Positions 602 through 63,437 of a stretch of 63,437 bases of DNA are shown here, one piece after another (the first letter of the stretch is position 1; every line of letters begins with the position of its first letter). Made by a program: the position numbers and the translations under genes. A model generated the notes under the pieces. The model was not told where the DNA came from, ran no database searches, and worked only from the letters and a program-made list of their open reading frames with translations. Origin of the DNA: a virus; IMG/VR virus record IMGVR_UViG_3300033407_000011, positions 1-63,437 of that record, one strand, 5' to 3'.

Positions 602-603
602 AA

Positions 604-1946: not shown

Positions 1947-1969
1947 AGTATAATATCCTTATTAATCAA

Positions 1970-2344
1970 TTATGTGGGATCTAAAATTTCTATATCCCAT
2001 TGGGGAAAATTCACCGTATTTCCTGATGTTAGTGGCTGCGAAGTACAGGTCGTCACGTAATAGAGCAAGCTGCCAGTGGATCGGGTCAGGGCAATAAATA
2101 GAGCTGTGCCGGTAGTGTCTACCGCTACAGACGACTTGGCCGCGACCGTCACCTTGCGGCCGCTGGTATCACCGTTGGCCTTGGTAAAATCGGTATCCGG
2201 CGTCGTGGCGATGTCCGCCAGCTTAAAGGTCGTGATGGCCTCGGTGTAGGTCGTCGGTTCGGCGCTACAAACGGTCATTAAATCCGCCTGATCCAGCACA
2301 TCAAACGCCCCGTCGAGTACGTTGTCGTGTACAGTTTTAGTCAT
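1970..2344 (-). CDS. hypothetical virion-module protein
   Basis: 124-aa ORF with ATG start, co-oriented and tightly packed with neighbours. T/S-rich and beta-like. Confidence 0.6.
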   Translation of the reverse strand: MTKTVHDNVLDGAFDVLDQADLMTVCSAEPTTYTEAITTFKLADIATTPDTDFTKANGDTSGRKVTVAAKSSVAVDTTGTALFIALTRSTGSLLYYVTTCTSQPLTSGNTVNFPQWDIEILDPT

Positions 2345-2345
2345 A

Positions 2346-2567
2346 TCAACCCCCTACCTTATCGGTGACGCCCAGCGTCGAATTTTGGATATCCAGCGAA
2401 TGTTGCACTTTCTGCCGATCACCGGTCTTAACGACTCCAGCCACATCCTCAGCCCAGCCGTACTCGACAAAGCGGCGGCCACGCTCATCCTCCACCGTAC
2501 GAATTTCGTCTTTAAGAAATTCATCCCTGCCATCCAGAAATTTATCTTCAAGTACTTTGATTTGCAT
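2346..2567 (-). CDS. hypothetical protein
   Basis: ORF 2346..2573. The listed start is TTG. ATG at 2567 is preceded by GAGGG about 8 nt upstream. Confidence 0.55.
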   Translation of the reverse strand: MQIKVLEDKFLDGRDEFLKDEIRTVEDERGRRFVEYGWAEDVAGVVKTGDRQKVQHSLDIQNSTLGVTDKVGG

Positions 2568-2577
2568 ATTCAAACCC

Positions 2578-2943
2578 TCATGTTATTAACGGCATAATCA
2601 ATACCGACTGAATGCGGTGCTGGCTGTCACGCTCGGTGACGGTGATTTTCATACCGGCACTGTTCGTGTGCTGCATCATGGCTTTCATGGCGTTCTGTTG
2701 TGCCTGGACTATTTCAATGACAGACAATGTTTGTTGCCGCAATTCGGTCACAACCTGCTGCAATTCCCTGTTGTTGTTTACCGAATTCAGCTTATCCAGC
2801 TTAACAGCAATATCTTGCAGTGCCGTTAGTTGCTGCTCGTCCGTGGTGGGCTCCGGTTTCCTCGGCACCACCCGTTTCCCATCAGCATGGCGTGCCTGTT
2901 TCCTGAATGCCTCTTGTTGGGTAATCACCCGGCCTGTGTTCAT
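2578..2943 (-). CDS. hypothetical coiled-coil protein
   Basis: ATG at 2943 forms an ATGA overlap with the stop of the 980-aa gene. The listed 2955 start is GTG. Confidence 0.6.
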   Translation of the reverse strand: MNTGRVITQQEAFRKQARHADGKRVVPRKPEPTTDEQQLTALQDIAVKLDKLNSVNNNRELQQVVTELRQQTLSVIEIVQAQQNAMKAMMQHTNSAGMKITVTERDSQHRIQSVLIMPLIT

Positions 2944-30739: not shown

Positions 30740-31238
30740 TACGGATCTCCAGCCGGAAGCGCTTGATACCTGCCATGTAACTCATGAACTGCCTGAATGC
30801 GATGGCGCTGTCTTTGACCATCGGCACGGCAGGATCCCGGGACAACCCGGGAGCCAGGCAACCGCCCAGTTCGTACGGATAGTTGGCAATGTGCATCTTG
30901 ATATGCTTGCGTCCAGGCACATGCAGAATTTCATAAGCTGGATAATCCGGCTTGCCACCGGGTCCGTCGCCACCGTAGTACATGCCGATAACGCACTCAA
31001 AGCTGTCAGCCGGAATACAACTGACGCCGGGCCGATTGTCACGCCAGGGCAATTCCAGGATATGCAGGTTAAGGTTTTTGAAGGCATCATTGGGATTGTA
31101 CAAATTGTCACGCCAGGGCAATTCCAGGATATGCAGGTTAGGGTTTTTGAAGGCATCATTGGGATTGTACAAAACGCCGAAGGTCACCCGGTCGGTGCGG
31201 TAATTACGATCCAGTATCAGTCTGCTTTTATCGACCAT
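30732..31238 (-). CDS. DUF5675-like protein (possible cell-wall enzyme of the lysis cassette) with an internal 23-aa duplication
   Basis: 168 aa. ELPWRDN...SCIPADSFEC...VPGRKHIKMHIANYPYELGGCLAPG fits my recollection of the DUF5675 pattern. Its position is upstream of the holin-like gene. Confidence 0.45.
   Translation of the reverse strand: MVDKSRLILDRNYRTDRVTFGVLYNPNDAFKNPNLHILELPWRDNLYNPNDAFKNLNLHILELPWRDNRPGVSCIPADSFECVIGMYYGGDGPGGKPDYPAYEILHVPGRKHIKMHIANYPYELGGCLAPGLSRDPAVPMVKDSAIAFRQFMSYMAGIKRFRLEIRNV
31035..31172. repeat. 69-bp tandem duplication (2 copies, 1 mismatch)
   Basis: 31035..31103 and 31104..31172 are identical except A/G at unit position 38. It is in frame and duplicates NPNDAFKN(P/L)NLHILELPWRDN. 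Confidence 0.9.
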
Positions 31239-48973: not shown

Positions 48974-51900
48974 TCAATTTGGAGTGAGTACCGTCTCCGC
49001 ATACCGGCGATTGAAGAATGCCTGGCGCTTCCGGATCAGGCTGTCAATATCATCAATCCGGCGCTTTTTCTCATCTGATGGCAGGATATCATTGGCCTGG
49101 ATATCACGGCGGCGCTTACGCAGATCCCGCAACTGGTTCCGGACCGACCGATCCAGTAGACGTAATCTGGCTTGCGGGCTCTGGATGGCTTTCAGGCGTT
49201 CCTCACCCTGGAGTTGTTTAATCTGCTTGTCCACATACTGCACGTCCATGGAACGCTCATAATACCGCTGGCTGATGGCATACTTGTTATCGTAACCGTA
49301 CAGCCGGCGCAACATAGGCACTTCCCGGACTTCGATTTGTTCGCCAGTCACAGCCTTGTGTGCCAGGTTGAACGAATCCATTACCACCCGCCCGGCAGAA
49401 CCCGTGGAGAAATCCACGAACACATCAACCCATTCCGGGGAGATATCAACAGCACCCGGGCGGATTTCATCACCACCGGAAATATCATTCAGGAACTTGG
49501 TAAATTCCTTCGAGACCTCACGGGCACTGGACCAGTGTTGCAGGTATTGTGGTTTGGCGGGTCCAAACGGGATCTCCTGCGGTTTCAATGGCCGTCCGGT
49601 CCAGTCCTTGTTTTCAGCTATCTGGACGAACGGATCCACCACGGTTGGTGCGAGAGTCTGCAGGAAGGTGGCATGACCCACCGGGTTAAAGGCTTCGGCA
49701 ATGGCGGCTCCTATCCGGCTGGCACTGTGCCATGCGTCAAAGCGTTCGCCCGTCATTAATTCGCCGAACTGCTGGCCGACCACATGCAGGGCGTTATAAC
49801 CCCAGGGCAGCATGAATTTGAAGATCGGTTCCTTCTCGCCCATGATGACCCAGTACCGCTCACGGATATGATCCGGCAGGGCGTCGTAATAGTTCTCTCC
49901 GTCGTCATCGTCACCCGCTGCTGCACGGTTGATGATATCCAATACGATGGCCACGCCAATGGTCGCCAAGGCCAGCCTGCGCCCTTTTTTGCTGGTCAGC
50001 ATGGCTTGCAGCATACGCACCGAACCCTGTATGGAGGCATTATAGAACAGGTACATGGCATTCAGGGTCGGTCCTGCCATACCACGGCGGTTAAAGTTGA
50101 CGGTCAGGTTCTTGGCCAGCGCTGCCGCACGGGTATCACTCAGCCCTAGTTCCACGGCTTTGCGGAAGGCGGCCAGACGGATCCCGTTCTCCACCACACT
50201 GTTATAATCATCAATAAAGTCCAGCAGCTTCATAAAGGCATTGCGGCCAGATTTGCCAGCCTGGATCCGTTTCATCTGGTCGGCCAGCTTATGACTGCGC
50301 TCGTTGATATCGCGGTAATGTTCAATCCAGCCCGTCTTACCACCTGCCAGCCGGAACCGCTCGGCCCAGCCGCCCCATTCACTGTGCCTGTCCCCTTTAC
50401 GCAGGTTGGCACGCAGTCCTTTCAGGGCGCCAGGCACCATTTTCAGAACACTCAGTTCCGCCTTGCTGAGTTCAGTGTCCGTCATGTTATACAGGGCGGT
50501 TTGCAGGTCACGGGCAAAATTTGAGATCACAAATTCAGGTGACCAACTGGTATTCAGTTGCGCCAGGAACCGGTTGAGCCCCAGCAGAACGCGAGTCAGC
50601 CGCCCGATATCACCATGATCCAGGTTCTTCATGGCTTTCAGGATACGCATACCCACTTCATTCTTTTGATTAAAGGTAATGGTATGCACTTGACCATCCA
50701 CCTTGACCTTGAGTTCATTATCATATTCACGCGGATCATTGAACCATTTGACTTCGCCATCCTTGACCGTGCCCATCTTCTTCGGCACATCGACGGTCCA
50801 GAAGGACGAATCCTTGTGTTTCTGGGCGAACTTCAGCAAGGCTTGCGCCACCCGGTTTTTCTCTGACCGGATGATCGAGGCTTCATATTGCGCCACTACA
50901 TTGACCAGCACATCCACTACGTCGCGGGTGGAACCCAGCCGGCGCTTGCTTTCCGGGCCACGAACACTGAATCCTTGACCACGGCTGGGCAGGGTGGCGT
51001 GCGCTTCATCCCGCTTTAAGGGGACATAGTGCTGATAGTTGGCCTGCCAGGCTGCGGCCATTTCCTCGGAAATGAGATCGCCCTGGATCAACAGCTTGAC
51101 ACGGGCAGCGTTGATTTCATCAATCAGGGTGCCAAAACGCTGCAAGGCGTCGTTGTCCCGGTGCTTGGCGAGGATAGACTCAGCCTCGGCGTCACTCATG
51201 CCGGACAGGGCAGTGTTGTCCTCACGCTCAGGATTGATGCGCTGCAAATATTCGTTGGCTTCGCTGGCATGACGGGCATGAAGCCATTCATCCAGTTCGG
51301 CCATGGCAAGGCCGGTCTTGCCTGCCATTTCCAGCATGGGTTCGATCTTGTCCCGGTTGAACCTGTCCAATTGTTCACCCGCCCGGCCTTGCCAGATGCT
51401 CTCGGCCATGTAGACGTCTTCATCTTCCGCGACACCACCCGTATCCTCCTGCAGGTGTTTCAGGTCAATGAACTTGTCCTGAATGACATAGCGGATGGGA
51501 TCCAGCCTGCGAGTGGCATGTTCGAGGGTCTGGGCAAACTCGCCATGGGTGGGGGCTGTAGCAGCAGTGGTATCTCGGCTATACAGCAGGTTATTATCTA
51601 ACGCATCAATCCCAATTGAATCAAGGTCTGATACCAGAGACCCCGCAATACCTTGCGCCAGAAGTGGATGCTTTTGAGTCGTACCGGGTACATATTGACC
51701 TGCGACCCGACCAAGTTTCTCCACCCACCCGGCGTAGTCCGATTGTAAAACGGATGCGGTAATAACTGCCCTTTGTGCCGTAGTATCAGCAATGCCCATT
51801 CCAACCGGGAACGTGGATATAAGTCGGATAACTGGTCTTCCCTGCGGATTAATTCCAGTGGCGAAATGTTTTGCAGTGCCTTGAACATAATATTGCCCAT

Positions 51901-54900
51901 CCTTAAAAATGATATTTTTCAAGTCCGGAAGGCGGCGCTGTGCCAGTGCAGCCGAGGCCAGCAGCATCGCCTCCAAGTTATTAAAGTATAGTTGGCGTTT
52001 CTCGAAACTGCTAGTAGTATTTGTCTCAGGCCGCCACAACACTACCTTTATCTGCTCCAATCGTTCCCGGATATGCCAGTTGCGATCAGAAAACTCAGAA
52101 TGCCGGTCTGTTTCACGGGTGACATCCGCCAGTGCGGTCTGCTCATCCAGTTGGTTGTACATATCGTCCGGCAATAACCCGATAAACTGCCCGATATGTG
52201 GCTCCAGATGTTCACTGGTGCCGTATTTCAGCATGGAGGAGATCATGGCTTCGGTGCGGCGCAGACGATTAATAACAGTAATTGTACGATCCGGAACCAG
52301 CACCTTATTATTGTTACGTGCCCATGCCATGGCAATCTGGTACGCCCTTGCGCCACCACCACCACGGCGGCGGCCACCTGGGCTGAATATTTCCGCAAAG
52401 GGTGCCTTAGTGTCAGGATTATGGATGGTCACTATGGGTGTGGCGTACTGGCCTATCTCATCCGTTTTTGGCACCTTAATAACGAATATGGGCGGCTGGG
52501 TCTGTTCTTCCACTGTCCAGTCATAACCAGCAGCTATGTCCTGTACCAGGGTTTTTAAGTCCTTTGCATCGCTGGGCGGCGCCTGGAACGCTTGGTCACC
52601 ACGGGCAATGTAACTCTGCCACACATCAGCCAAGCGGGTGCGGTTGATGCTGGCTGCGTCCTCTGCAGGCTGGGCAGGCACGGGCGGTCGATAGGAAACT
52701 TCTTCACGTGTGGTTTGCCGGATGGCAGCCACAGCCATGCTCACCAGCATGTTCGGATCTAGGTTGCGAATTAAACCCAGTTGATACAGGAACCGTTTGA
52801 TAGCGGCCAGGATCCGTTTCACCAGCGGCAGTTCCTGATTGGCGCGTTCCTGCACCATGTAAGCAATGACTTCCTCGGTATAGTTACTGCGCGATGTATC
52901 GTCCGGCACCTTCAATGCCGCATTGGCAGCGGCCTCATTCAGTTTGCCATTCACGCCACGCTTGGCCAGTTTGAGTGCGGCGGCTACATGCGCCTTGGTC
53001 TGGATCCAGAGTTTATCACCCAGCATCTGCGGCATCCCGTAATGAACGCCAACCTCATGCAGTAACACGGCATAGGCATTATTGATATCAGCCTCATTCA
53101 GGCTTAACCGGTTGGCGATCAGGAAGGTCTTGCCCGCCTTGCGATCAAACCAGCCAGCCACGTCTCCGGCATTTTCTGCCAGCGCCCAGTTCGGCAGTTC
53201 GCGCTTGGTGGAAATGATCTTGAACCGGCCTGAGTCCATTAACTGCTTCCAGGCTTTATGTCCCAGCTTGTCACGCAAGTATTGTTCTACGGCCTCACCG
53301 CTTGGACCAGTGCTGGTATCCATGACCGGCGCTTCAGCCCCCCGGCTCATCAGCATGTCTTCATCGGGTTCGCCGGCAATCTCCACGACCGGATCATTCT
53401 TGATGGTGATCTTGAACGGCTCCATCTTGCCCAGCGGGAAAAAGAACCGGGCAGTATAGTTAATGCGTTCCGAGATCAGGCCGCGATCCTGTAAATTGGC
53501 TGACCAGCGGTAACGATCAGCGGCGGGCAGGATCAGTTCCATGCGTTGCTCACCGGAGACCATACGCTTGGCAATCTGCCAGCCATTGGCCAGGATCAGG
53601 GTCTTACCGTCCTTCATCACCGCATTGTGCAGTTCCGCAGGCAACATCTGGACGCTGGCACGTTCAGCACCCAGGTTTTTCAGTACGGCATTAATCTGGG
53701 CGCTGGGGATCTGCATCCCGATAAACCGTTCATGGCTGTCAGTGGTCTGGGCACGCACGACGCGCACGCTGCGATCCCCTTCATGGACAATCCGGCTCCA
53801 GATGGGGAGGACGGCACCCACAATCATGTGCGTGTCGGCGGACTTGATCTTGGGTGCTGTTTCAAAAGCCTCCTGCCAGTGAGTGGCGGCACTCTCCAGC
53901 GACTCGATTTGTTTCCAGTTGCCTGCCATGTAATAGGTGCCATCATGATACTTATGCTGGACAACCTCGCTGTATTCGACCGCCTTGCTGCCTGTTGGGT
54001 CATACCGGCGCAGTTGTTTCACGACCTTACCTTCCTTGGTGGTCTTGTCCACAGTCGGTAGGAAGGCGGCAAACTTGTTGGACAGTTCATTTACCGCATA
54101 CACGGCTTCATGCAATACCTTGCGGCGTTCAGCCAGATCCAGAAATTCGGTGAAGGTCATCGGGTGCAATGGTGTTTCTACATTCAAACGGACATACTTG
54201 GTGACTGCGCTTGTCCCTTCATGCGTATGTACAATACGTTCCTCTTTTTTCTCGACCCGATCCCCGGTGACATTCTCGATGCCGACATCAAAATCGCCGA
54301 TTTCACGGTGGTAATCCACCACCTGCTGCAACCGGTGAAAGAAAGCCTCAAAGACCTCATTTTGACGCGCTGTTTTCAGTGACAGGATCCGGTTCAGGAA
54401 TTGCTGAATGGTCGGGGTCTTCTTGTCAGAAACATTCCCTTCTTCATCCCGCAAATTGATCCACATTTCATGCTCCAGCGTAGCAATACTGAGGCCCTCC
54501 ATGCCTTCCAGTTTGTTCCTGGCCAGATCCCGCACCATGCCACGCAGGGCTTCTTCGGAATACACGGTTTCCAGATTATGCTCGGCGCTGAATATCCCCT
54601 GCGACCCGGCTTCACGCTGGCCTTTAGTGAGCGCACCCAGTTGATCCAGGCGCCTGGCCACTGAGGAAATAAACCGCAGGTGCCCCTTGAGATCGGTGGT
54701 TACCAGCACATAATGCGGGGCTTGTTTCTGATTGGATCGGTGCGTCCGGCCAAAACCCTGCACGGCATTATCAGCACGCCAGCCAGGTTGCACCAGATAA
54801 TGGAACCGCTTGCGCTGGTTCTTACGCCTGAGATCCGCATGAAAGTCCTGGCCGGTACCGCCTGCATCGGAGAACACCATGATCTTTTTCTTGTCCTCCA

Positions 54901-57900
54901 TGAATTGGGAAATATCGGCACCCACCGCAGTCGCACTGCGCCTCTCCCAAGCCTTTTTTCCTTTCTTTGTGACCAGACGACGGGATCTGCCGGTGACCTC
55001 AGCCACCTGGCTCACGCCAAAATGATCAATAATCTGATCCAGCGGGCCGTGAGGTATAGCAATCGTTGCGATCATGTCCAGCATCTGGTCGCGGATGGCC
55101 ACGGCCTCGGCAGAGATCACCGGGTTGCCCTGCGAATCCTCCACCAGTGTCATGATCTTGTTGCCGTTACTGTCAACTGTTTCCTCGTATTTATGGATCG
55201 GAAAGGAAGATTCCAGAAACTGCATGATGGATTGGCGCGGGGTAATGTCCAGTTCATCCAGTGAGATCCCCTCATTGGCCGCCTGTGCGGCAGCGCGTTC
55301 GGTTTGCGCTTCATTGGTATTCACCAGTTGCAGCACGATACTGTGTTCTTCCTCGAGGCGTTTCTCAATGTCCTCGATCAGGGATGGCATCTGCATGGAA
55401 GTCAATACCTGGTTAAAAAACCGCTGGTGCGCTCCCCAAAAGGCGGACAAGGCGGATGATTTTGCATTCTTGGCCTTGACCTTGCCTTCCTCATTGACAG
55501 CACCAATCGCTTCCAGTGCCACACCAATGTTCTGTAATATGACTTGCCACCCTTCGGCCATCACATCGTACATTTCAACCTGTTCCGGCGTGAGTGCGTG
55601 GGTCAGTTGGCCGTAAGTCACATCATGGTAGGACAGGGAACGGGCGCCATACATACCCAGTGCTTTCATGTCCTGGGCGACCAGTTCCATGGCGGCGACA
55701 CCCTTGCTGCTGATAGCTTCGATAAAGGCCACGTTGTCTGCAAACGGCGTGCCTTCACCCCAGAGCCCAAGGCGGCTGGCATAGCCCAGATTATTGACCT
55801 CGGTGGCACCTGTGGCAGATACATATAAAATCCGCGCCTGTGGCACCTTGGTCTGCAACTCCACGCCAGTCAGGGCTGTTTGTGAGGGTTTGGTCCGGCC
55901 ACGTTTGCCTTTCATGGCAATCACATTTCCTAATTTATGGGCTTCATCAAACGCGATCACGCCATCAAAGTCTGGTCCGAGCCAGTCTGCAATCTGCTCC
56001 ATGCGGGATTTACCGCCGCTTTTCGTGGATGCCTGGCGCAGGGTGCCGTAAGACACAAACAACACGCCTTCCGTCAGAGTGATCGGATCTTCCGGTTTCC
56101 AGCGTTTAATGTTGGTAATGATCTTGTTCGCATCTTCCCCGGTGACACTGTTCCAATCCCGCCGTGCCAAGTCCAGTAATTTGTCATCCTTGGTGATCCA
56201 GATATGGCGCTTCCGGCCACGGCGGATGTTATCCGTCATCACCCCAACAACTTCACGCGCCTTGCCGAGACCAGTGTTGTGATGCACCAAACCGCCAGCA
56301 ATGTAGTTCTCCGGCCCTGGTACCCACATATCATAGAATTCAGCACGTCCTGATAATTCTATGGACACAATCCTGTCCCATCCCCCATAATATTGACATG
56401 AGGAAACCACGAAACTCGATCCCAGAGCAGGCGGTACCGCAGGTAATCGCAGATTATCAGGCTGGTGTTCCAACGACTGAACTTGCGAATCGTTATGGCG
56501 TGACACCGCCGACTGTGGCCTGCCTTCTAATGAAATATGGCATTCAGATTCGTTCTCGTTCTGAGATAAACGCGCTGCGTGCGCCTGTAGATGATGAGCG
56601 TCTGCGCCAGTTGAATGATGAAGCGCAACTGAACCACCAGCAAATTGCCCATGAGTTGGAAGTATCGACGGCGACTGTTGAGCGTCGTCTACGAGCTCTG
56701 GGTTTGAAATCAAAGAAGGGTCGCGGCTCTCCAATGGAGAAAAATTACTTTTGGAAAGGTGGCCAGATGACGGACGCCGATGGCTATATTCTCCTGAAAT
56801 GTCCTGACCATCCGCACAAGAATGCACAGGGATATGTGCGTGCTCATCGCCTTGTAATGGAGCAAATTCTTGGCCGTTATCTGGATCGTCTTGAAGTCGT
56901 ACACCACATTGACGGAGATACGCAGAATAACGTCCCAGACAATCTTCAGGTGTTTGCCTGTAATGCGGATCATCTTCGGCATGAATTGACTGGGCGGACG
57001 CCGAATCATTCTCCGGCAGGGCTTCGGCGGATGCGAGAAAATGCCCAACGCTTAAACCGTCTACGATACGCATCCAGCCGGAAGGTGTGAAAAATTTATG
57101 ATTTACCGTAACTTGTACTGAACGGCCACTTTGCATAACGACCCGATACAGATCATCCTCGCCTTTTTTGAATGGCGCTTGAGCATTAAAAGCCTCGAAA
57201 CCATCAGCAGTCAACGATAGCACCCTGATTGGCCTGCCAGCCTCAGCCAATGTCTTGATAGGCGTTTCTATCCCAGTGTCTGGGTTAAGGATCAGCGTAT
57301 CTCCAGCAACACATCCGTCGCCAATGAAGTAGCCGCGCCGCTCTCCATTGGGCAGCATTTTATCGTGGGCATCGCCCGCCCGGATGATTTGTTCAATCTG
57401 GGCATTGGACAAGGCGCCTGACTCAATGGCTTTCTTCGGCAGGTTAGGCACATAACTGGTCGATGGTGGCGTGACCGTGGCCATGGCCGCAGATTCGACC
57501 AGGGTGCCAGGGTGTGGCTTGGAACCCGGCAGTGTGATAAATGGCTGATACGCATCGAATACTGCGTCCGTCAATGCCTGATGCTGCATGATATTTTCTA
57601 CGCGATCCAGTGCAGCATAATCGCTGGTGATTTCAATGTTCTTGTTGGTAGTTTTGCCGTTATCACCGTTTTGCGTCAGTTCATTGGCAAACTGGATGGC
57701 ATACGGCCTGACCCCTTCCCCGAAATTACGGATCAGGAATTTAAAGAATTCTTTTAAGGACTTGCCAGCGGCCTTGAATTCAGACCAGGCTTTCTCGAAA
57801 TGGGGTTTGGCACGGGCATAGGTCAGATCATCAAAGCCCGCAGGGAAGGATTTTAGGGCGTTGCCGCCGAATAATTCATAGAGACCGGTCAGTGCTTCGG

Positions 57901-60900
57901 ATACCCCTTTGGCGCCGTGATCAGCCGCCTCAGTCAGGATATCGGTCAGTTCTCGACCATGGCCTCCTCGATCCAACTGCGCACCGCTACCTGGGCGCCG
58001 TCCAGTGCCAGCACTTCCAGGTCGCTGGCCTCCAGTGGGTTCAACTCCGGATCTTCCAGTATCTTCATCACCACCTTGGGCGGCAACGTCTCCAACTGGT
58101 TCAACGCCTGCTCCAGCAGGGAATTGACCGGTGGCGGTTCCAGCCGCGCCAGTTGTAGCAGGTACAGCGTCTCCGGCCCGGCTTCCGTACCCAGCAGTTT
58201 CTTGGCGGCCTGATTGATCGGAGTATTGTTCTCCGGGATAAACTCTGTCATTGCGTATCTCCTCCAGGGCTTCTATCGTATTGGACAAGTTTTCCAGTGC
58301 ATTATTCGCCTTGAATTCAGTAGTAAGTATAATGCTTGTAGTAGGTCCTGTCTTGTCAATTATCACAATTTGTTTATCAAACGTGGTACCAAACTTACGG
58401 TAACCCTCGCCGGACAGGCCGATATTGGCACGGACATTGTAACGGCGCTGGATTTCACGCCAGAAACCACTGGCTTGCGCCTTGTTCAATGCCAGTCCTT
58501 CACCCACCAGCGCGACCAGCCGGCCACCTGGCGCCAACCGGGTCAGCGCCTGCTCGATATGGTTCATGGACACACTACTGTCGCGGCTCCCAGGCACCCG
58601 TCCTGCCGTTGCAGTAAAGGGTGGGTTCATAATCACGACAGTCGGTACTTCTTCCGCTGCCAGAATGTCATGCAGGTGCGCAGCATCCTCCCGGGTCGGG
58701 TGTTCTGTGGTCAGCATTTCCAGCAGATTGGCACGGCGATCACTCAGTTCATTCAGGATCAGTGAATTCGCGCCAAACATCTGCGCCAATGTGGCCAGAT
58801 TGCCCGTGCCGGCACTGGGCTCCAGCACAATATCATCCCGGTTCAAATTAGCTGCCCGTGCCATCACATAGGCGATGGTATGAGGCGTGCTGAATTGCTG
58901 GAATTCCATCTGTTCCTCAGTCCGCTTGGTCTGGGTGGTCAGATTATTGATGGCGCTATTCAGTAAGGACAGTTCTGTTTTGGCCGTGGTCATATCCGAT
59001 AACTTGATATCACGAACAACAGCCTCGTTTGTTAATAACCACTGGTTAAAGGCGATCTCCATAGCGTCATACGCATCACGCGGGGTATAGACGCCCTCAG
59101 CCTGCGTGCCGCCATACGCCTGATCCGCCAGTTTGAACAAGTCCTGCCACGATAATGGTGTCTTGAATCCACGCTCGAACAAGGCCGCTACCAGCTTCGT
59201 TGCCGGTGTCTTTTGATCCGTGCCAGTGTTCTCCTGCTCCGCTTCCTCGGTTTCGGACAGGGCCTCATCAAACAGGTTTTCCAGATCCTCGGTGCTCAGA
59301 TCCTGGATATCATCCGGTGGAGCAAAAGTGGGGCTGTCTACCATGGATTCGCGCAGTTGACGGACTTCTTCTTCAGCCTTTTCCTGTGCGGCTTTGTCCT
59401 TTAACGCCTTGGCCTCGGCTTCAATCTTGGCCTCCGATGACCTCATCACTTTATTGCCAGCGGGCAATCCATTTTCAATCTTGTCCAGTGCTTCCAGCAG
59501 TTCCCCGATGTGTTTTTTGATCGGGTACTGGTCTTCCGCCACCTTGATGACCGGGTAACCGTCTTCGCCGATAGCAATGTCTTTCAGGAACTGTTCAAAC
59601 AATTCATTGAATGCCTGGCGTTCCTCATCAACCGGATAGGGTGTACCGCGATAACCGGCACTCTTGGTGACCTTGCCATCTGCCACCCAGTCACTGACCA
59701 GATAGGTGTCCATGCCACCCAGCGTATCAAAGACAAAGGCTTCCGCAGCGCGGGCGAACATTTCCCGCTTATTGCCCCAGTAGTCCTTGCCCAACGCGTT
59801 GGCGTGTTTGAAATAATCTGTTTGGGAGCCAGCAGAACTCCAGGCATCACCCCTTTCACCATTCCTGACAAAACCATTCAGACCACTACGCAACCGGGTA
59901 ATGGCATGACGTGCATTCCACAGCCGGCCATTGTGTTTGCTGCTTGTCCAAAAGGTATGGCCGGAGAGAAAATCTGCAACACGTGCCGCCATTTTCTCCG
60001 GTGTGGTCAGTTGATAACGCAACAACCCGATGAACTGCTGCAGATACGGGTGTAATGTTTCATCGTCATGCGCCACCTGCTGGCCGTGGTGTTTGTTCCG
60101 GAGCATGTAATCAATGGCATGGAAATACTCATGATTCACGGTGCCATCGCCGTGGGTATTGGTCAGGTTGATAACGGGCGTGACCTCACCGGTCGGGTTG
60201 TTTTCCTGGTCCAGTACCGGGTGACGATTGCTGTAATGGGCGGCATGGCGGCCATGCCCCAGAGCACCAAAGGCCAGCACCAGGCGGTTACCGAACCCGA
60301 TCTGCGCCAGCTCCCAGCCCAGTTTCTCCGCCAGATCCATGAACGCGTCATAGGCATAGTTACTGTGATCCTGTAATTGTGTGGACGTGACGTAGTTGCC
60401 GACCGTAATCCCCTTGAATCCAAACGTGGTCTGTAACTCCTCCAGCGTGATGTTCTTGCCTTTACGGTGATCGCGCAGCCCTTCCCGTTCTACCCGGTCG
60501 AATTTGGGACGTATCAGTTTGTTGACAGCGCCGCCGCGCTTGGCGGCTTGATCGTCGTCGAACCGGTAGGTAATAGATTTGGCAACCCGTTCTGCGGCAT
60601 GTTCCGAGTCACCTTCCACCTTCATCAGGTAACTGCGGTAACCCTTAAACACATCTTCCACGGTACGCATGTTATAAAAATATTCATGCGCATAATTGTT
60701 CATCGTATTGACGTACTCGGTAGCCGCATCCCGGACTTCATCCAGCCTTTTCTGCCAGCCTTCATTTTCTACGCTGGATTTACTGATCCGGCCTTCACTT
60801 TTATTGCTGGTATAGACATAACCCTCCAGCATGCCCGCCGGGTCTTTGTAGTTATACCCGGTGATTTTCCGTGAGACCCACTGTTTCGGCAGGGATAATT

Positions 60901-62977
60901 TGCTGCGGACATACTCCATGGCCAGTGTTGTCCCCGGTGTAGCGTCGCCATCCAGAATGAACGGGAAGGACGAGGCCCGGTCTGCGTGTTTGAAAATGTC
61001 CTCAATGCCTTTCCGGATGGCTTCATCAGCAGCCAAGGCGGTACTCCAGCGCAGATCCATCATGCGTTTCAATTGCGGCCCGATGCCCTCCATCTTGGCA
61101 CCGCGTTTTGCGCCCACTTTATATTCTGCCATGAAGTTCTGTGCCGCTTCATAGCCACTGCGCAACAAGGGCAAATCGGTGGGTGTTGGGTAATCAGCGG
61201 TTGGCAGGTTGGATAATGTCCCGCCGCCCAAGGCATGATCCCAACCCGCCTGTAAAACTCCCACATCCTCATCGCTCAGATTGTTGTCTGCCTGTTCTTT
61301 GGCCAGGTAATCCGCCATGATCTGGGCTGAGGCTTCACGCCATTCCGCCCGGCGTTTTTCCGCCTCCTGCCGTTGCTTGACCTTATTGGCCTCGGTCAAC
61401 GCCCCATTGAAATATTGATCGCCGAAGATGGCCGGATTCATGGCATTTCCTTCCATCAGTTGATCCAGTGCCGCCAGATAGTCTTTCAGGAATGGGGCTG
61501 ATTTGTTCTGGGCTTTGGCATTCTTCCGGGCGGTCTCAATCGCGTCCAGTAATGCTTGGGTCAGTGCAGACTTGAACGCTTCATAATGCTGTCCTGCGGC
61601 CTGCAAAACTCCCACATTGTTCATGGCTTCTTTATGCACATTGCCCTGCACCAGTGATACATCCACGGTCGGGTTGGCGGGTTTGAAATTGCGGTTGATG
61701 TACTCATCAACTACCTGTTTCAGCCGCTGCGGATTATTTAATGCTTCTGTGATGTAGTGTTTGAACGGTTCACGCAATGAATCCGGCATGGCGTAACCAG
61801 CAACATTCTCAACAATACCAGGCAGGATTTCCATGATTTTGCTGGTGATTTCTTTATCACGCCGGTTACGGTTGGTCTGGGTGTCCTTGAAGCCTTTTGA
61901 CAAGGCAACGGCCAATTCGCGCAATGATTGATCCTGGTTCAACTGCACCTGGACTGATTTTGCCGATGCCTCGTACCATTCTATTCTGGTATCCTCTTGA
62001 GTGGGGTACAGTAATTGATCACTGTCACTGTCCGGATGCCCAGCGAAAATCTTGCCGTTATAGGCGATATACCCAATCAGGGTGACACCCTCATACACCA
62101 GCGGGAATGCTTCCAGTTCAGAGGCGCCGAAATTACCAGTTTCACGCACTTGATCCCATTTACGGCTGGCATCCGCCAGAGATTCGACCGGGTAACTTTT
62201 ACCCATGAATTCCACCCGCAAGCCTGGTGACGTAGTGGCAATATCAGTTCCCGGTGCTGCCTCTACACTGTCAGAGACCGGTTTTTTGGTCCTGCCCTTG
62301 GCCAGCCATTCCTTGAACTGTTCCTGGGTCATTTCCGTAATGGCGCCCAGTCCTTGCCAGCCCTTGGTATAGTTGCGCTTATACATGACGCGGGCGGCAC
62401 CTTGAGAGCCGTAACCCAGCATGACCTTGTGCTCGTCAAACTTGCCGGTTTCCGGGTTAATCTGGTCAATGACATACACATTGCCCTGCCAGTCTTCTGC
62501 AATACCAGGCTTCACAAACACATCAATCTGTTCACCGTCCTTGCCCTCGGTCCGGTTGAAATAGCCATAATGATCATTCAATTCCGGCCATTCCGGGCGG
62601 CGGCGTGAGCCCTGCGGGTTCTCAATGGCAATATCCAGCCCCATGACCTGGATATGACCTTTCTGATAGTTCCCGGCCTCTTTCTGGGCAGCGGTGGGTT
62701 GTAACAGGTCATTTTCGGGTGAAGTGGCGGCAATGTGGGCAGCATCGTCCACAGTGACAGCGGGTTCGGCAAACTCGGGTTTCTGCTCCAGCACTTGCTG
62801 GATCAGGTTGCGTCTCTCGTCCAGCAAGCTGCTGATATGATCGTTAATGGCACGTTCGGCGGCATCCTTGGCGGTCAGATCCTCCTCACTCATCAACTCC
62901 TGTTGGCTGCCCAGCAGGATCGCGGCCTCGTGTTCTCCCAGTCCAAGTTGTTGCAGACATTGTTTCAGTGAGGCCAT
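48974..62977 (-). CDS. 4,667-aa polyvalent (DarB-like) protein: pyrophosphatase-like, zincin, N6-methyltransferase, intein-split strawberry-notch helicase, second HExxH region and a C-terminal membrane-associated region
   Basis: A single 14,004-nt ORF. ATG 62977 overlaps the TGA of the repeat gene (TGATG). Motifs are listed in the sub-features. Confidence 0.9.
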   Translation of the reverse strand: MASLKQCLQQLGLGEHEAAILLGSQQELMSEEDLTAKDAAERAINDHISSLLDERRNLIQQVLEQKPEFAEPAVTVDDAAHIAATSPENDLLQPTAAQKEAGNYQKGHIQVMGLDIAIENPQGSRRRPEWPELNDHYGYFNRTEGKDGEQIDVFVKPGIAEDWQGNVYVIDQINPETGKFDEHKVMLGYGSQGAARVMYKRNYTKGWQGLGAITEMTQEQFKEWLAKGRTKKPVSDSVEAAPGTDIATTSPGLRVEFMGKSYPVESLADASRKWDQVRETGNFGASELEAFPLVYEGVTLIGYIAYNGKIFAGHPDSDSDQLLYPTQEDTRIEWYEASAKSVQVQLNQDQSLRELAVALSKGFKDTQTNRNRRDKEITSKIMEILPGIVENVAGYAMPDSLREPFKHYITEALNNPQRLKQVVDEYINRNFKPANPTVDVSLVQGNVHKEAMNNVGVLQAAGQHYEAFKSALTQALLDAIETARKNAKAQNKSAPFLKDYLAALDQLMEGNAMNPAIFGDQYFNGALTEANKVKQRQEAEKRRAEWREASAQIMADYLAKEQADNNLSDEDVGVLQAGWDHALGGGTLSNLPTADYPTPTDLPLLRSGYEAAQNFMAEYKVGAKRGAKMEGIGPQLKRMMDLRWSTALAADEAIRKGIEDIFKHADRASSFPFILDGDATPGTTLAMEYVRSKLSLPKQWVSRKITGYNYKDPAGMLEGYVYTSNKSEGRISKSSVENEGWQKRLDEVRDAATEYVNTMNNYAHEYFYNMRTVEDVFKGYRSYLMKVEGDSEHAAERVAKSITYRFDDDQAAKRGGAVNKLIRPKFDRVEREGLRDHRKGKNITLEELQTTFGFKGITVGNYVTSTQLQDHSNYAYDAFMDLAEKLGWELAQIGFGNRLVLAFGALGHGRHAAHYSNRHPVLDQENNPTGEVTPVINLTNTHGDGTVNHEYFHAIDYMLRNKHHGQQVAHDDETLHPYLQQFIGLLRYQLTTPEKMAARVADFLSGHTFWTSSKHNGRLWNARHAITRLRSGLNGFVRNGERGDAWSSAGSQTDYFKHANALGKDYWGNKREMFARAAEAFVFDTLGGMDTYLVSDWVADGKVTKSAGYRGTPYPVDEERQAFNELFEQFLKDIAIGEDGYPVIKVAEDQYPIKKHIGELLEALDKIENGLPAGNKVMRSSEAKIEAEAKALKDKAAQEKAEEEVRQLRESMVDSPTFAPPDDIQDLSTEDLENLFDEALSETEEAEQENTGTDQKTPATKLVAALFERGFKTPLSWQDLFKLADQAYGGTQAEGVYTPRDAYDAMEIAFNQWLLTNEAVVRDIKLSDMTTAKTELSLLNSAINNLTTQTKRTEEQMEFQQFSTPHTIAYVMARAANLNRDDIVLEPSAGTGNLATLAQMFGANSLILNELSDRRANLLEMLTTEHPTREDAAHLHDILAAEEVPTVVIMNPPFTATAGRVPGSRDSSVSMNHIEQALTRLAPGGRLVALVGEGLALNKAQASGFWREIQRRYNVRANIGLSGEGYRKFGTTFDKQIVIIDKTGPTTSIILTTEFKANNALENLSNTIEALEEIRNDRVYPGEQYSDQSGRQETAGYGSRAGDAVPATTGAAGTATGQFPAGAGVEPVGDVAAQGGDEDTGRSGVEPTGGQRPGSAGTGRRPGSGAQLDRGGHGRELTDILTEAADHGAKGVSEALTGLYELFGGNALKSFPAGFDDLTYARAKPHFEKAWSEFKAAGKSLKEFFKFLIRNFGEGVRPYAIQFANELTQNGDNGKTTNKNIEITSDYAALDRVENIMQHQALTDAVFDAYQPFITLPGSKPHPGTLVESAAMATVTPPSTSYVPNLPKKAIESGALSNAQIEQIIRAGDAHDKMLPNGERRGYFIGDGCVAGDTLILNPDTGIETPIKTLAEAGRPIRVLSLTADGFEAFNAQAPFKKGEDDLYRVVMQSGRSVQVTVNHKFFTPSGWMRIVDGLSVGHFLASAEALPENDSASAQSIHAEDDPHYRQTPEDCLGRYSAYLRQCGVRLQDDPDNGQEFAPLQGDEHAHIPVHSCADGQDISGEYSHRRPSSGHLSKSNFSPLESRDPSLISNPELVDDAQQSPSILPTHGQFAGGSVALHHSTGADAHHLQAHAARLSQNENESECHISLEGRPQSAVSRHNDSQVQSLEHQPDNLRLPAVPPALGSSFVVSSCQYYGGWDRIVSIELSGRAEFYDMWVPGPENYIAGGLVHHNTGLGKAREVVGVMTDNIRRGRKRHIWITKDDKLLDLARRDWNSVTGEDANKIITNIKRWKPEDPITLTEGVLFVSYGTLRQASTKSGGKSRMEQIADWLGPDFDGVIAFDEAHKLGNVIAMKGKRGRTKPSQTALTGVELQTKVPQARILYVSATGATEVNNLGYASRLGLWGEGTPFADNVAFIEAISSKGVAAMELVAQDMKALGMYGARSLSYHDVTYGQLTHALTPEQVEMYDVMAEGWQVILQNIGVALEAIGAVNEEGKVKAKNAKSSALSAFWGAHQRFFNQVLTSMQMPSLIEDIEKRLEEEHSIVLQLVNTNEAQTERAAAQAANEGISLDELDITPRQSIMQFLESSFPIHKYEETVDSNGNKIMTLVEDSQGNPVISAEAVAIRDQMLDMIATIAIPHGPLDQIIDHFGVSQVAEVTGRSRRLVTKKGKKAWERRSATAVGADISQFMEDKKKIMVFSDAGGTGQDFHADLRRKNQRKRFHYLVQPGWRADNAVQGFGRTHRSNQKQAPHYVLVTTDLKGHLRFISSVARRLDQLGALTKGQREAGSQGIFSAEHNLETVYSEEALRGMVRDLARNKLEGMEGLSIATLEHEMWINLRDEEGNVSDKKTPTIQQFLNRILSLKTARQNEVFEAFFHRLQQVVDYHREIGDFDVGIENVTGDRVEKKEERIVHTHEGTSAVTKYVRLNVETPLHPMTFTEFLDLAERRKVLHEAVYAVNELSNKFAAFLPTVDKTTKEGKVVKQLRRYDPTGSKAVEYSEVVQHKYHDGTYYMAGNWKQIESLESAATHWQEAFETAPKIKSADTHMIVGAVLPIWSRIVHEGDRSVRVVRAQTTDSHERFIGMQIPSAQINAVLKNLGAERASVQMLPAELHNAVMKDGKTLILANGWQIAKRMVSGEQRMELILPAADRYRWSANLQDRGLISERINYTARFFFPLGKMEPFKITIKNDPVVEIAGEPDEDMLMSRGAEAPVMDTSTGPSGEAVEQYLRDKLGHKAWKQLMDSGRFKIISTKRELPNWALAENAGDVAGWFDRKAGKTFLIANRLSLNEADINNAYAVLLHEVGVHYGMPQMLGDKLWIQTKAHVAAALKLAKRGVNGKLNEAAANAALKVPDDTSRSNYTEEVIAYMVQERANQELPLVKRILAAIKRFLYQLGLIRNLDPNMLVSMAVAAIRQTTREEVSYRPPVPAQPAEDAASINRTRLADVWQSYIARGDQAFQAPPSDAKDLKTLVQDIAAGYDWTVEEQTQPPIFVIKVPKTDEIGQYATPIVTIHNPDTKAPFAEIFSPGGRRRGGGGARAYQIAMAWARNNNKVLVPDRTITVINRLRRTEAMISSMLKYGTSEHLEPHIGQFIGLLPDDMYNQLDEQTALADVTRETDRHSEFSDRNWHIRERLEQIKVVLWRPETNTTSSFEKRQLYFNNLEAMLLASAALAQRRLPDLKNIIFKDGQYYVQGTAKHFATGINPQGRPVIRLISTFPVGMGIADTTAQRAVITASVLQSDYAGWVEKLGRVAGQYVPGTTQKHPLLAQGIAGSLVSDLDSIGIDALDNNLLYSRDTTAATAPTHGEFAQTLEHATRRLDPIRYVIQDKFIDLKHLQEDTGGVAEDEDVYMAESIWQGRAGEQLDRFNRDKIEPMLEMAGKTGLAMAELDEWLHARHASEANEYLQRINPEREDNTALSGMSDAEAESILAKHRDNDALQRFGTLIDEINAARVKLLIQGDLISEEMAAAWQANYQHYVPLKRDEAHATLPSRGQGFSVRGPESKRRLGSTRDVVDVLVNVVAQYEASIIRSEKNRVAQALLKFAQKHKDSSFWTVDVPKKMGTVKDGEVKWFNDPREYDNELKVKVDGQVHTITFNQKNEVGMRILKAMKNLDHGDIGRLTRVLLGLNRFLAQLNTSWSPEFVISNFARDLQTALYNMTDTELSKAELSVLKMVPGALKGLRANLRKGDRHSEWGGWAERFRLAGGKTGWIEHYRDINERSHKLADQMKRIQAGKSGRNAFMKLLDFIDDYNSVVENGIRLAAFRKAVELGLSDTRAAALAKNLTVNFNRRGMAGPTLNAMYLFYNASIQGSVRMLQAMLTSKKGRRLALATIGVAIVLDIINRAAAGDDDDGENYYDALPDHIRERYWVIMGEKEPIFKFMLPWGYNALHVVGQQFGELMTGERFDAWHSASRIGAAIAEAFNPVGHATFLQTLAPTVVDPFVQIAENKDWTGRPLKPQEIPFGPAKPQYLQHWSSAREVSKEFTKFLNDISGGDEIRPGAVDISPEWVDVFVDFSTGSAGRVVMDSFNLAHKAVTGEQIEVREVPMLRRLYGYDNKYAISQRYYERSMDVQYVDKQIKQLQGEERLKAIQSPQARLRLLDRSVRNQLRDLRKRRRDIQANDILPSDEKKRRIDDIDSLIRKRQAFFNRRYAETVLTPN
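49934..49980 (-). other. predicted transmembrane helix near the C-terminus of the giant protein
   Basis: RRLALATIGVAIVLDIINRAAAG (aa ~4333-4350), followed by an acidic DDDDGE run. Confidence 0.45.
52778..53290 (-). other. region (aa ~3230-3400) with a second HExxH motif
   Basis: NNAYAVLLHEVGVHYGMPQMLG. The HEVGVH motif is at aa 3307-3312 (53042..53059). Confidence 0.4.
56362..56391 (+). promoter_or_regulatory. speculative promoter for the antisense HNH gene (would give a leaderless mRNA)
   Basis: TGGACA (56362..56367), an 18-nt spacer, then CATAAT (56386..56391). The ATG lies 7 nt downstream and there is no Shine-Dalgarno sequence. Confidence 0.2.
56398..57090 (+). CDS. HNH homing endonuclease with two N-terminal HTH motifs, encoded antisense inside the intein
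   Basis: 230 aa. GVPTTELANRYGVTPPTVACLL and LNHQQIAHELEVSTATVERRL are HTH motifs. GYVRAHRLVMEQILGRYLDRLEVVHHIDGDTQNNVPDNLQVFACNADHLRHE is the HNH motif. Confidence 0.8.
   Translation: MRKPRNSIPEQAVPQVIADYQAGVPTTELANRYGVTPPTVACLLMKYGIQIRSRSEINALRAPVDDERLRQLNDEAQLNHQQIAHELEVSTATVERRLRALGLKSKKGRGSPMEKNYFWKGGQMTDADGYILLKCPDHPHKNAQGYVRAHRLVMEQILGRYLDRLEVVHHIDGDTQNNVPDNLQVFACNADHLRHELTGRTPNHSPAGLRRMRENAQRLNRLRYASSRKV
58298..58930 (-). other. domain (aa ~1350-1560): N6-adenine DNA methyltransferase
   Basis: Motif I VLEPSAGTGNLA (E at aa 1386, 58802..58822) and motif IV VVIMNPPF (aa 1451-1454, 58616..58627). Confidence 0.8.
59798..60460 (-). other. domain (aa ~840-1060): zincin-like metallopeptidase module (HEYFH)
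   Basis: FGFKGITVGNYV...LAFGALGHGRHAAHY...INLTNTHGDGTVNHEYFHAIDY. The HExxH motif is at aa 949-953 (60119..60133). Confidence 0.5.
62294..62695 (-). other. domain (aa ~95-228): inorganic-pyrophosphatase-like module of polyvalent proteins
   Basis: AGNYQKGHIQVMGLDIAIENPQGS...GEQIDVFVKPG...VYVIDQINPETGKFDEHKVMLGYGS. The assignment is from memory of the InPase-type domain. Confidence 0.45.
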
Positions 62978-63437
62978 CAGATGCTCCGCCGTAACGCCAG
63001 TAGATCCACGATATCCTGCATATCCTGATTGTCCTGGGCTTTCAAGTCAATCGCATAGGGATTATAGCGCAACAAGTAGTCAGGCCAGTCATCGGCACCA
63101 GCCTGTAGTGTTTCAACAGTTACAATATCCACGGTAAGAATTATATTGTCTGCTGTATGACCATGAACCGCATCAGTGATCGACAATAATATAGAGCCAT
63201 CGTCAATGGTCAGTGTGACATTATCAGCCGTGTGGCTGTGTTCAGCATCCTGTACGGTCAGCACATGAAGCTGTGTTAATGTGAGATTATCTGCCTCATG
63301 CGAATGTTCAGCGTCCTGAACGACAAGAACATGGGCCTGCGTTAATACCAGATTATCTGCCGTATGCCCGTGAACGGCGTCATCAATATTTAACAGGTGC
63401 AGTTGGGTCAGATCCAGATTGTCAGCCGTGTGGCTGT
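62977..63437 (-). CDS. 3' part of the wrap-around HxH-repeat fibre-like protein
   Basis: Open from the window end down to TGA 62979..62977. It contains ...VQDAEHSHTADNVTLTIDDGSILLSITDAVHGHTADNIILTV... and the non-repeat tail WPDYLLRYNPYAIDLKAQDNQDMQDIVDLLALRRSI. Confidence 0.75.
   Translation of the reverse strand, partial: SHTADNLDLTQLHLLNIDDAVHGHTADNLVLTQAHVLVVQDAEHSHEADNLTLTQLHVLTVQDAEHSHTADNVTLTIDDGSILLSITDAVHGHTADNIILTVDIVTVETLQAGADDWPDYLLRYNPYAIDLKAQDNQDMQDIVDLLALRRSI
63407..63437. repeat. 31-bp terminal overlap identical to bases 1..31 (circular closure)
   Basis: GTCAGATCCAGATTGTCAGCCGTGTGGCTGT is present at both ends of the window. Confidence 0.95.

Follow-up and report, generated by a model that had tools for sequence, protein, structure and literature searches.

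The virus record IMGVR_UViG_3300033407_000011 of IMG/VR (positions 1 to 63,437; this whole stretch of 63,437 nucleotides is called the window below) encodes on its minus strand a giant polyvalent phage protein, whose strawberry-notch (Sno) helicase is interrupted within its Walker-A loop by an intein, and the space between the two Hint lobes of that intein is taken up by an intact HNH endonuclease gene lying on the opposite strand. We propose that this arrangement is, very probably, a mobile class-1 intein of a non-canonical type, in which the homing endonuclease (HEN) is provided as a separate antisense gene between the Hint lobes. The copy in the window belongs to one large lineage that occupies the Walker-A loops of many ATPases of phages and mobile elements. 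The features on which the argument depends are as follows, given by position in the window and strand:

48974..62977, minus strand: the host gene, encoding a polyvalent phage protein of 4667 amino acids (open reading frame (ORF) list and Pfam)
57314..57331, minus strand: end of the N-extein, YFIGDG, the first half of Walker A (translation; intein-free homologues read R[KR]G[YF]FIGDGTGVGKGR)
56276..57313, minus strand: class-1 intein of 346 residues, Cys1 to Asn346 (residues 1889-2234 of the giant protein; translation, Pfam and in-silico excision)
57023..57313, minus strand: Hint N-lobe, residues ~1-97 (Pfam Intein_splicing; match to an N-lobe hidden Markov model (HMM) at 56990..57352, E 1.3e-39)
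57098..57109, minus strand: block B, TVNH, within the Hint N-lobe
56381..57022, minus strand: intein-frame insert, residues ~98-311, the antisense reading of the HNH gene, free of Pfam matches and of stop codons
56276..56380, minus strand: Hint C-lobe, residues 312-346, WDRIVSIE...FYDMWVPGPENYIAGGLVHHN (C-lobe HMM, E 1.2e-23; alignment across loci)
56249..56275, minus strand: start of the C-extein, TGLGKAREV, with the +1 Thr and the GK of Walker A (translation; comparison with homologues)
56398..57090, plus strand: HNH homing-endonuclease gene, intact, 230 amino acids (Pfam HNH_3 at 6e-10, with helix-turn-helix (HTH) matches)
56425..56535, plus strand: first HTH region (Pfam; HTH_23 and HTH_24 are found in the HNH protein)
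56557..56697, plus strand: second HTH region (from the same Pfam matches)
56764..56988, plus strand: beta-beta-alpha HNH core (HNH_3; AlphaFold2 (AF2) model)
57013..57081, plus strand: predicted C-terminal helix of the HNH protein, overlapping the coding sequence of the Hint N-lobe (AF2)
56362..56391, plus strand: promoter-like element TGGACA-18-CATAAT, inside the coding sequence of the Hint C-lobe (consensus scan)

The intein has the residues needed for splicing in their expected places. Specifically, its Cys1 (residue 1889, codon 57311-57313) directly follows YFIGDG and opens the motif CVAGDTLI, the N-lobe contains TVNH, and the C-lobe ends in FYDMWV...GGLVHHN↓T (here and below an arrow marks a splice junction), which supplies the penultimate His, the terminal Asn (codon 56276-56278) and the +1 Thr. 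The Pfam profile Intein_splicing (PF14890) matches at 3.8e-14, above its gathering score, with the profile stretched across the long insert. When the intein was excised in silico, the two-piece match to AAA_34 (348 bits) merged into a single one that spans profile positions 1-305 of 306 without a break (375 bits), and the uninterrupted loop GDGTGVGKGR is found in 33 database homologues of the pattern R[KR]G[YF]FIGDGTGVGKGR, intein-free alleles of Sno helicases being abundant. An initial annotation, made from the nucleotide sequence alone, had identified a Hint intein in the P-loop of the helicase, with these motifs and coordinates, and had held that its excision would restore Walker A; these claims are all borne out. 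The insert of about 210 residues between the lobes is presumably a disordered linker that is removed together with the intein. A protein homologue search with the intein as query gave no match at E<=1e-3, likely due to gene callers rarely calling the read-through ORF, and near-identity DNA searches of this region against phage and plasmid collections also returned no match.

A different explanation of these motifs is that the Hint domain does not splice, and either serves as an autoproteolytic site at which the polyvalent protein is cut into pieces or simply disrupts the gene. N- or C-terminal cleavage is a possible side reaction of inteins, and processing into modules has been proposed for polyvalent proteins, reportedly by Iyer et al. 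in 2017. However, every residue required for splicing is present, and the site lies inside Walker A, so that cleavage alone would destroy the helicase, yet its AAA_34 and Helicase_C_4 modules are intact (348 and 286 bits, respectively, in Pfam). Moreover, the same element is found in the genes of essential proteins such as terminase large subunits, and one of the genes that carry it belongs to a viable phage in culture, which is described below. We consider a non-splicing Hint domain very unlikely.

The endonuclease slot of the intein is the reverse complement of the intact HNH ORF, as the initial annotation had it, and profile searching of the 230-residue product confirmed both the HNH_3 domain and two HTH regions. 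There are 886 database homologues of this protein, with a top identity of 64%. Its AF2 model, based on an alignment of 26 sequences, is confident (predicted local distance difference test (pLDDT) 83) and places three-helix bundles at residues 10-46 and 54-100, followed by a floppy linker, a beta-beta-alpha core at 123-197 and a long helix at 206-228; H169, H170, N178, N182 and H192 are invariant among the 26 aligned sequences. In a Foldseek comparison the best nuclease fold was I-HmuI (probability 0.98, 96 columns, 25% identity, with a weak E of 0.12), and the HTH pair resembles the bipartite DNA-binding domains of Mos1, Tc3 and Pax, all E-values being above 0.05, so that these likenesses are to be read as domain-level resemblance only. 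With the whole model Foldseek gave no match at E<=1e-3, because of the flexible geometry of a multi-domain protein. The gene does not begin 1-2 codons from block F, as had been suggested, but about 20 codons from it, and its start codon lies only ~6 codons ahead of the first conserved strand of the C-lobe, WDRIVSIE.

The giant gene remains open across the antisense copy of the HNH gene. In the frame relation concerned, each intein codon overlaps HNH codon positions 2, 3 and 1', the last belonging to the neighbouring codon, and stops arise in the intein frame wherever the HNH gene has the junctions NTT-A, NCT-A or NTC-A. The remainder of the giant gene, read in the same antisense relation, has 197 stops in ~4320 codons (0.0456 per codon), and at this rate ~10.5 stops would be expected across the 231 HNH codons where there are 0; the earlier rough estimate had been ~0.047 per junction and ~10 stops. 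The stop-free run at the HNH gene is 298 codons long, the runner-up in that frame of the giant gene being 127 codons. Synonymous shuffling within the HNH ORF gave a mean of 7.4 stops, with a zero-stop outcome in 0 of 20,000 shuffles (P below 5e-5), shuffling of codon order gave a mean of 7.8 (P 1e-4), and recoding by host codon usage gave a mean of 4.7 (P 8.5e-4). As many as 36 HNH codons end in TT, CT or TC, and in none of the 36 cases does the next codon start with A, a letter that starts 22% of codons overall.

It might be argued that such an open frame is a chance or compositional by-product of this HNH family, arising without selection on the host frame. Long antisense ORFs of ~200 codons are indeed common opposite the giant gene, though in the other two frame relations, and two free-standing HNH genes in GC-rich DNA have open antisense frames without an intein. 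These two homologues, L039:4145-4756 and L148:2893-3438 (57-60% GC), have neither Hint lobes nor a long host ORF, and their open frames are probably due to chance or composition; it follows that zero stops alone are not diagnostic in GC-rich genomes. Against this explanation, the relevant frame relation predicts 5-10 stops, and there are 0 stops in all ~144 embedded loci that we collected (see below), compared with 2-19 in 11 homologues that are not embedded. This contrast between embedded and free-standing genes refutes chance or composition as the cause, to which we give next to no credence. The open intein frame is selected, as the initial annotation had claimed, and the stop-creating HNH junctions have been purged because the host proteins are needed.

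The opposite strand of the giant gene also bears many stop-free runs of 180-210 codons, which lie in the codon-aligned antisense frame, with its 0.016 stops per codon, and in one further frame. Runs of this kind are the usual compositional "shadow ORFs" and have no bearing on the frame of the HNH gene.

We next describe the collection of loci. In the metagenome sample, an HNH-alignment search was followed through its best 80 of at least 568 stretches, to which loci from protein matches were added, and each locus was examined; the viral sample consists of IMG/VR contigs, the best 80 of at least 555 stretches. HMMs of the two lobes were built from the metagenome loci, and the IMG/VR set serves as replication, some of its contigs being the same, so that the two sets are not fully independent. 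In ~68 non-redundant metagenome loci the HNH gene lies between Hint N- and C-lobes encoded on the opposite strand, with HNH identity to the window protein down to 32%; all of these loci are free of stops in the same frame relation along the entire HNH ORF, the two remaining antisense frames having 1-21. Both lobes were likewise found in 76 of the 80 IMG/VR loci, with 0 stops in 76 of 76 and averages of 5.2 and 9.2 stops in the other two frames. Thus, as the initial annotation had proposed to check, both frames remain open across embedded relatives. The expectation from host codon usage is ~5 stops per locus, that is 240 over 48 loci, against 0 observed. As a negative control, 11 HNH homologues that are not flanked by Hint lobes show 2-19 stops in the intein-type frame, and annotated free-standing homologues include PhiH1_365 of Halobacterium phage phiH and a gene of Providencia phage PSTNGR2lys. 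A profile search found 1259 clusters (at 50% identity) with E<=1e-30. The totals of at least 568, at least 555 and 1259 count free-standing relatives too, and ~85-95% of the 160 sampled loci are embedded.

The first column of the intein is Cys in 57 of 57 aligned loci, nearly all aligned inteins end in ([HNS])HN followed by S, T or C (the two exceptions being L073, with HKN, and L087, with SAN), and the Intein_splicing profile matches 23 of 30 family members. In the contigs of the nearest HNH homologues, the HNH gene is again antisense to a long AAA_34 ORF, which gene callers split at the HNH gene. A scan of genome contigs with the single HNH protein gave two weak matches only, neither of them embedded. 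The only embedded copy with stops is L001:5863-6974 (with an identical copy in L002), a degraded element with 2 stops in the host frame and a frameshifted Hint N-lobe. The contig of L001/L002 is plasmid-like, with a Tn3-family transposase, a resolvase and ParA, and its AAA_34 is reduced to a fragment of 470 amino acids; its HNH ORF is still intact and has been lengthened to 296 amino acids.

This recurrence also bears on whether the window has simply been misassembled, with a local inversion of an ordinary in-frame HNH domain of the intein in this one contig. The window is a metagenome-style assembly with a terminal overlap of 31 nt, which might invite such a suspicion, but more than 140 contigs that were assembled independently share this orientation and frame, as do the GenBank records of phage isolates (Ymer, Abuela, Koroua and others), and stops would be expected in an in-frame domain that had been inverted. 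An artefact of this kind is hardly credible.

If both strands are open, which of the two readings is under selection? We compared 15 independent pairs of embedded HNH genes, with the last 40 codons left out, and found 0.31, 0.25 and 0.58 differences per site at HNH codon positions 1, 2 and 3, respectively, so that changes fall mainly on position 3, and an amino-acid identity of 0.62 for the HNH protein versus 0.31 for the intein-frame reading of the same nucleotides. The HNH protein is thus under ordinary purifying selection. The intein-frame insert, in which no Pfam match was found, is constrained only to lack stops, except where the last 20-25 HNH codons lie over strands of the Hint N-lobe. 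It comes at little cost, since HNH position 3 leaves enough synonymous choice to avoid nearly all of the forbidden junctions. The initial annotation had considered both readings to be constrained, which is correct for the HNH reading, with its position-3 bias and its identity of 0.62, and does not hold for the insert beyond its openness, given the identity of 0.31 and a hydrophobicity equal to the null expectation. It had also read the S/P/H/D/Q-rich composition of the insert as that of a tolerated linker, whereas this composition is simply that of the antisense of an HNH gene and equals the recoding null.

Selection for a hydrophilic or disordered insert was considered separately and rejected. 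A depletion of A-ending HNH codons was expected under such selection, because HNH position 3 is position 2 of the intein frame; the hydrophobic fraction of the insert is 0.263, compared to 0.258 under synonymous recoding by host usage, and only 21 of 48 loci lie below the null.

These comparisons allow us to weigh the possibility that the HNH ORF is a decaying relic of a former invader, where only the intein and host frame is being kept and the element is immobile. Antisense ORFs are expected to decay fast after homing ends (Gosselin, Arsenault and Gogarten, bioRxiv 10.1101/2025.01.02.630785), and the copy in L001/L002 is degraded, though there it is the host frame, and not the HNH ORF, that is broken. 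However, the HNH ORF is intact in every embedded locus and its catalytic residues are invariant, divergence is concentrated at HNH codon position 3, Shine-Dalgarno (SD) and promoter signals are enriched at the starts, and the predicted fold is confident. A relic is accordingly an unlikely account of the family, and a functional endonuclease gene is the reading that we retain.

The two genes are also physically interlocked at both ends. Across loci the 3' end of the HNH gene consistently overlaps the envelope of the Hint N-lobe, by a median of 113 nt, and in the window the Hint strands WMRIVDGLSVGHFLAS are encoded opposite the HNH tail ...RMRENAQRLNRLRYASS, which is predicted to be helical. This tail is missing from alignments to free-standing homologues, which stop at residue ~185-201, and it may have arisen by overprinting. 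At the other end, the promoter-like element TGGACA-18-CATAAT ends 6 nt ahead of the HNH ATG, and no SD sequence is found at the HNH start of the window. Related loci of the Sno clade have the same TTGACA/TATAAT layout at the same place, in codons for the Hint strand ...RIVSI.... In 39 distinct loci with an aligned HNH N-terminus, using internal positions as the control, an SD-like motif at -17..-5 accompanies 46% of HNH starts but 13% of control positions (P 7e-7). A -10-like hexamer whose end lies 5-10 nt upstream is present at 21% compared with 0.9% (P 1.5e-9). For the window itself, the promoter-like element is suggestive only by its position and conservation, and the arrangement of its start suggests a leaderless antisense HNH mRNA in this clade.

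From the host ORF translations of the loci that were inspected, the intein is always within the Walker-A loop, and in one of two registers. In the first the junction is G-x-x-G↓[S/T/C]-G-K-[S/T], for example GGRG↓SGKT and GDG↓TGVGK. In the second it is ...G-K↓[S/T], for example GNRLGK↓C...HN↓T, such that the Walker-A Ser or Thr is itself the +1 nucleophile (L017, L025, L029, L033, L034, L043 and L048). Pfam searches with 30 host ORFs identified Terminase_6N (10), Terminase_3 (5), Helicase_C and SNF2, AAA, AAA_2, DnaB_C, RepB_primase and TraG-D_C; the window adds the strawberry-notch helicase to this list, and the exteins come from at least 8 ATPase families. Occupied and empty P-loop alleles coexist.

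The element is also present in the cultured, lytic Pectobacterium phage Ymer (OP748252.2, our locus L088), in which a gene of 754 amino acids (1574-3838, minus strand) bears GFG↓CVHPHT...HIHHN↓TGKS and an unannotated antisense ORF of 232 amino acids (2947-3645, plus strand) matches HNH_3. The 754-amino-acid gene lies directly upstream of the portal gene and is annotated as a "hypothetical protein", while its position and P-loop motif indicate that it is probably the terminase large subunit. If so, the Ymer intein must splice despite its antisense-coded insert, because the terminase is essential for a lytic phage. The paper on the genus of Ymer contains no mention of inteins (PMC11445585). With the HNH protein as query, tblastn also matches the Ymer relatives Abuela, Koroua, Amona, Sabo, Taid and Pappous and Dickeya phage Setonix.

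In one locus, L015, the terminase-like ORF with the antisense-HNH intein holds a second intein, QM↓CIAAGELV...LLVHN↓CTF (182-1111, minus strand). Its insert is S/T/R/G-rich and contains a same-strand, out-of-frame ORF of 161 amino acids (282-767, minus strand) with the HNH motif WHVHHIDHDRGNN...HHRRH. An out-of-frame HNH within an intein, as in this case, was not found in the literature.

The frequency of terminases among the hosts raises the question of whether the HNH protein might serve the phage, as a terminase-associated packaging nuclease or as a nuclease of defence or anti-defence, instead of homing. Many hosts of the element are indeed terminase large subunits, and terminase-adjacent HNH proteins reportedly aid cos cleavage in some phages (PMC3592412). 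Against such a role, the same HNH family is found in inteins of helicases, AAA+ ATPases, DnaB, TraG-like and Sno proteins, the combination of HTH domains with an I-HmuI-like HNH is the architecture of a homing endonuclease, and intein-free alleles are common. We regard a service to the phage as highly improbable.

In the mechanism that we favour, that of a mobile intein with an antisense endonuclease gene, the giant polyvalent protein would be translated straight across the antisense HNH copy, which would give it an unstructured insert of ~210 residues. The Hint lobes would then fold around this insert, splice out the 346-residue intein and rejoin GDG and TGLGK as a working Walker A. Meanwhile the HNH gene would be transcribed from its own promoter inside the codons of the Hint C-lobe, its message being probably leaderless in this clade and provided with SD sites in others. 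At co-infection the HNH endonuclease would cut or nick intein-free P-loop alleles, and repair would copy the intein together with the HNH gene, which constitutes homing. The similarity of Walker-A coding sequences would permit jumps between ATPase families.

Several results weigh against this proposal. AF2 modelling of the intein from its sequence alone gave no usable structure (pLDDT 32), and the fold of the intein and the disorder of its insert are for this reason taken from motifs and published analogues. Near-identical inteins in divergent exteins, which would indicate recent homing, were not found among the loci. Pairwise identities of the HNH proteins and of the Hint lobes correlate weakly (rho ~0.2, from noisy alignments), which gives no clear sign of strict co-inheritance as one unit. 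Finally, the number of sites in the promoter scan of the region is no higher than in shuffles (2 versus 1.8).

A more far-reaching reading, which we put forward only tentatively, is that the antisense-HNH P-loop inteins are one ancient and successful lineage in which intein and HNH gene are interlocked, and which crosses ATPase families through recognition of Walker-A DNA. With the last HNH helix overprinted on the N-lobe and the promoter and start in the C-lobe, neither part could move or decay alone. The antisense orientation would uncouple the timing of HEN expression from that of the host genes, which are probably late or very long, and the unit would jump among terminases, Sno, SNF2 and DnaB helicases, AAA+ and TraG proteins. 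If this were true, the family may outnumber every other class of non-canonical inteins and be a systematic source of "split" calls of terminases and helicases in phage genomes.

With regard to its genomic setting, the window is an apparently complete phage genome of ~63.4 kb from a circular assembly, the first 31 nt (1-31) being repeated as the last 31 nt (63407-63437), and its products include a P22-like portal and a capsid protein of the Phage_capsid_3 family. The giant gene makes up 22% of this genome, and its product comprises, by Pfam, the modules InPase, LPD1, the strawberry-notch helicase (AAA_34 and Helicase_C_4), LPD37 and LPD38. Near the junction of the window (37-229 and 63245-63437) there are direct repeats at 66-nt spacing with 60-90% identity. 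At 31035-31172, within a minus-strand coding region, a 69-nt unit is tandemly duplicated in perfect register, with 68 of 69 bases identical.

The family has consequences for the way that such genes are understood and annotated. It extends the rare layout of inteins with antisense endonucleases to HNH nucleases and shows that, for this family, the layout is common in environmental phages. It is also a clean natural case of dual coding, where the protein of one strand is under selection while the opposite reading is selected merely to stay open, with ~144 replicates at 0 versus ~5 stops per locus and a negative control to match. Gene callers either take the HNH ORF and fragment the host gene, or miss the HNH gene and leave the host as a "hypothetical protein", as in Ymer; terminases, helicases and giant polyvalent proteins are hence mis-annotated. 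As Ymer and its relatives are cultured, splicing across a nonsense insert of ~200 residues, antisense or leaderless expression of the HEN, and homing into P-loops are directly testable. The family supports the view that a free-standing HEN invaded a pre-existing mini-intein, and that Walker-A sites are stepping stones for extein switching.

An endonuclease gene antisense to an intein is not new in itself. Although the initial annotation knew of no intein with an antisense, dual-coded endonuclease gene, such cases have been reported since 1998: antisense LAGLIDADG HENs lie in the DnaX intein of Synechocystis and in a Chloroflexus intein (Gorbalenya 1998; Gogarten 2002, both as cited by Gosselin, Arsenault and Gogarten), and a 2026 preprint re-describes the dnaX case, with its LAGLIDADG HEN, SD motifs and a frame-dependent ratio of nonsynonymous to synonymous substitution rates (dN/dS). 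The list has been extended to inteins of actinophages, including those in terminases, which contain antisense LAGLIDADG or VSR-like HENs or an out-of-frame EndoVII-like HEN (Gosselin, Arsenault and Gogarten, bioRxiv 10.1101/2025.01.02.630785). These authors argue that essential hosts imply splicing and that annotation misses such inteins, and in their survey HNH appears only as an in-frame domain.

The present family resembles these antisense-HEN inteins in having a separate antisense HEN ORF between the splicing blocks, an open intein frame with an unstructured in-frame reading, hosts that include terminase large subunits, and a proposed origin by invasion of a free-standing HEN. It differs from them in that its HEN is an HNH_3 protein with two HTH domains, where theirs are LAGLIDADG or VSR-like, in being very large, confined to Walker A and of one fixed frame relation, and in that the HNH gene overlaps the Hint N-lobe and has its start signals inside the Hint C-lobe.

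A second relative is the ShiLan domain, an out-of-frame HNH hidden in DNA methylases of mycobacteriophages (Arsenault et al. 2025, PMC11855218). As here, a homing-type HNH gene is hidden in an open host ORF and leaderless translation has been proposed, and the HNH core is homologous, since tblastn with the window HNH matches Mantra, Totinger, Starcevich and Pollywog at 38% identity over residues 105-186. However, the HNH gene of ShiLan shares its strand with the host gene and uses the third frame, there is no Hint domain and the insert stays in the mature protein, whereas in the present case the gene is antisense and the insert would be spliced out. Fractured genes, in which a same-strand free-standing homing endonuclease gene lies between the halves of a split intein (Dassa et al. 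2009, PMC2677866), similarly place an endonuclease gene of free-standing type between N- and C-intein parts, in phage-like metagenomic DNA, with its ends overlapping intein codons. There the host is split into two ORFs, the gene is a GIY-YIG or Vsr-like one on the same strand and splicing is in trans, while here there is one ORF of 4667 codons, and splicing would be in cis.

Like I-HmuI, the HNH protein is a beta-beta-alpha-Me nuclease with separate DNA-binding modules, the structural match being partial, although its domain order is HTH-HTH-HNH and that of I-HmuI is HNH followed by the DNA-binding modules. The Hint splicing blocks are shared with inteins that carry their nuclease in the same polypeptide, but here the HNH nuclease is not part of the intein chain. 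A search of the literature, which was not exhaustive, gave no example of an antisense HNH within an intein. What is new, therefore, is not the antisense endonuclease in an intein as such, which was already known, but a large HNH branch of the non-canonical inteins, and with it a new combination of characters: an HNH_3 and HTH endonuclease that is antisense, interlocked with both Hint lobes, confined to Walker A and abundant.

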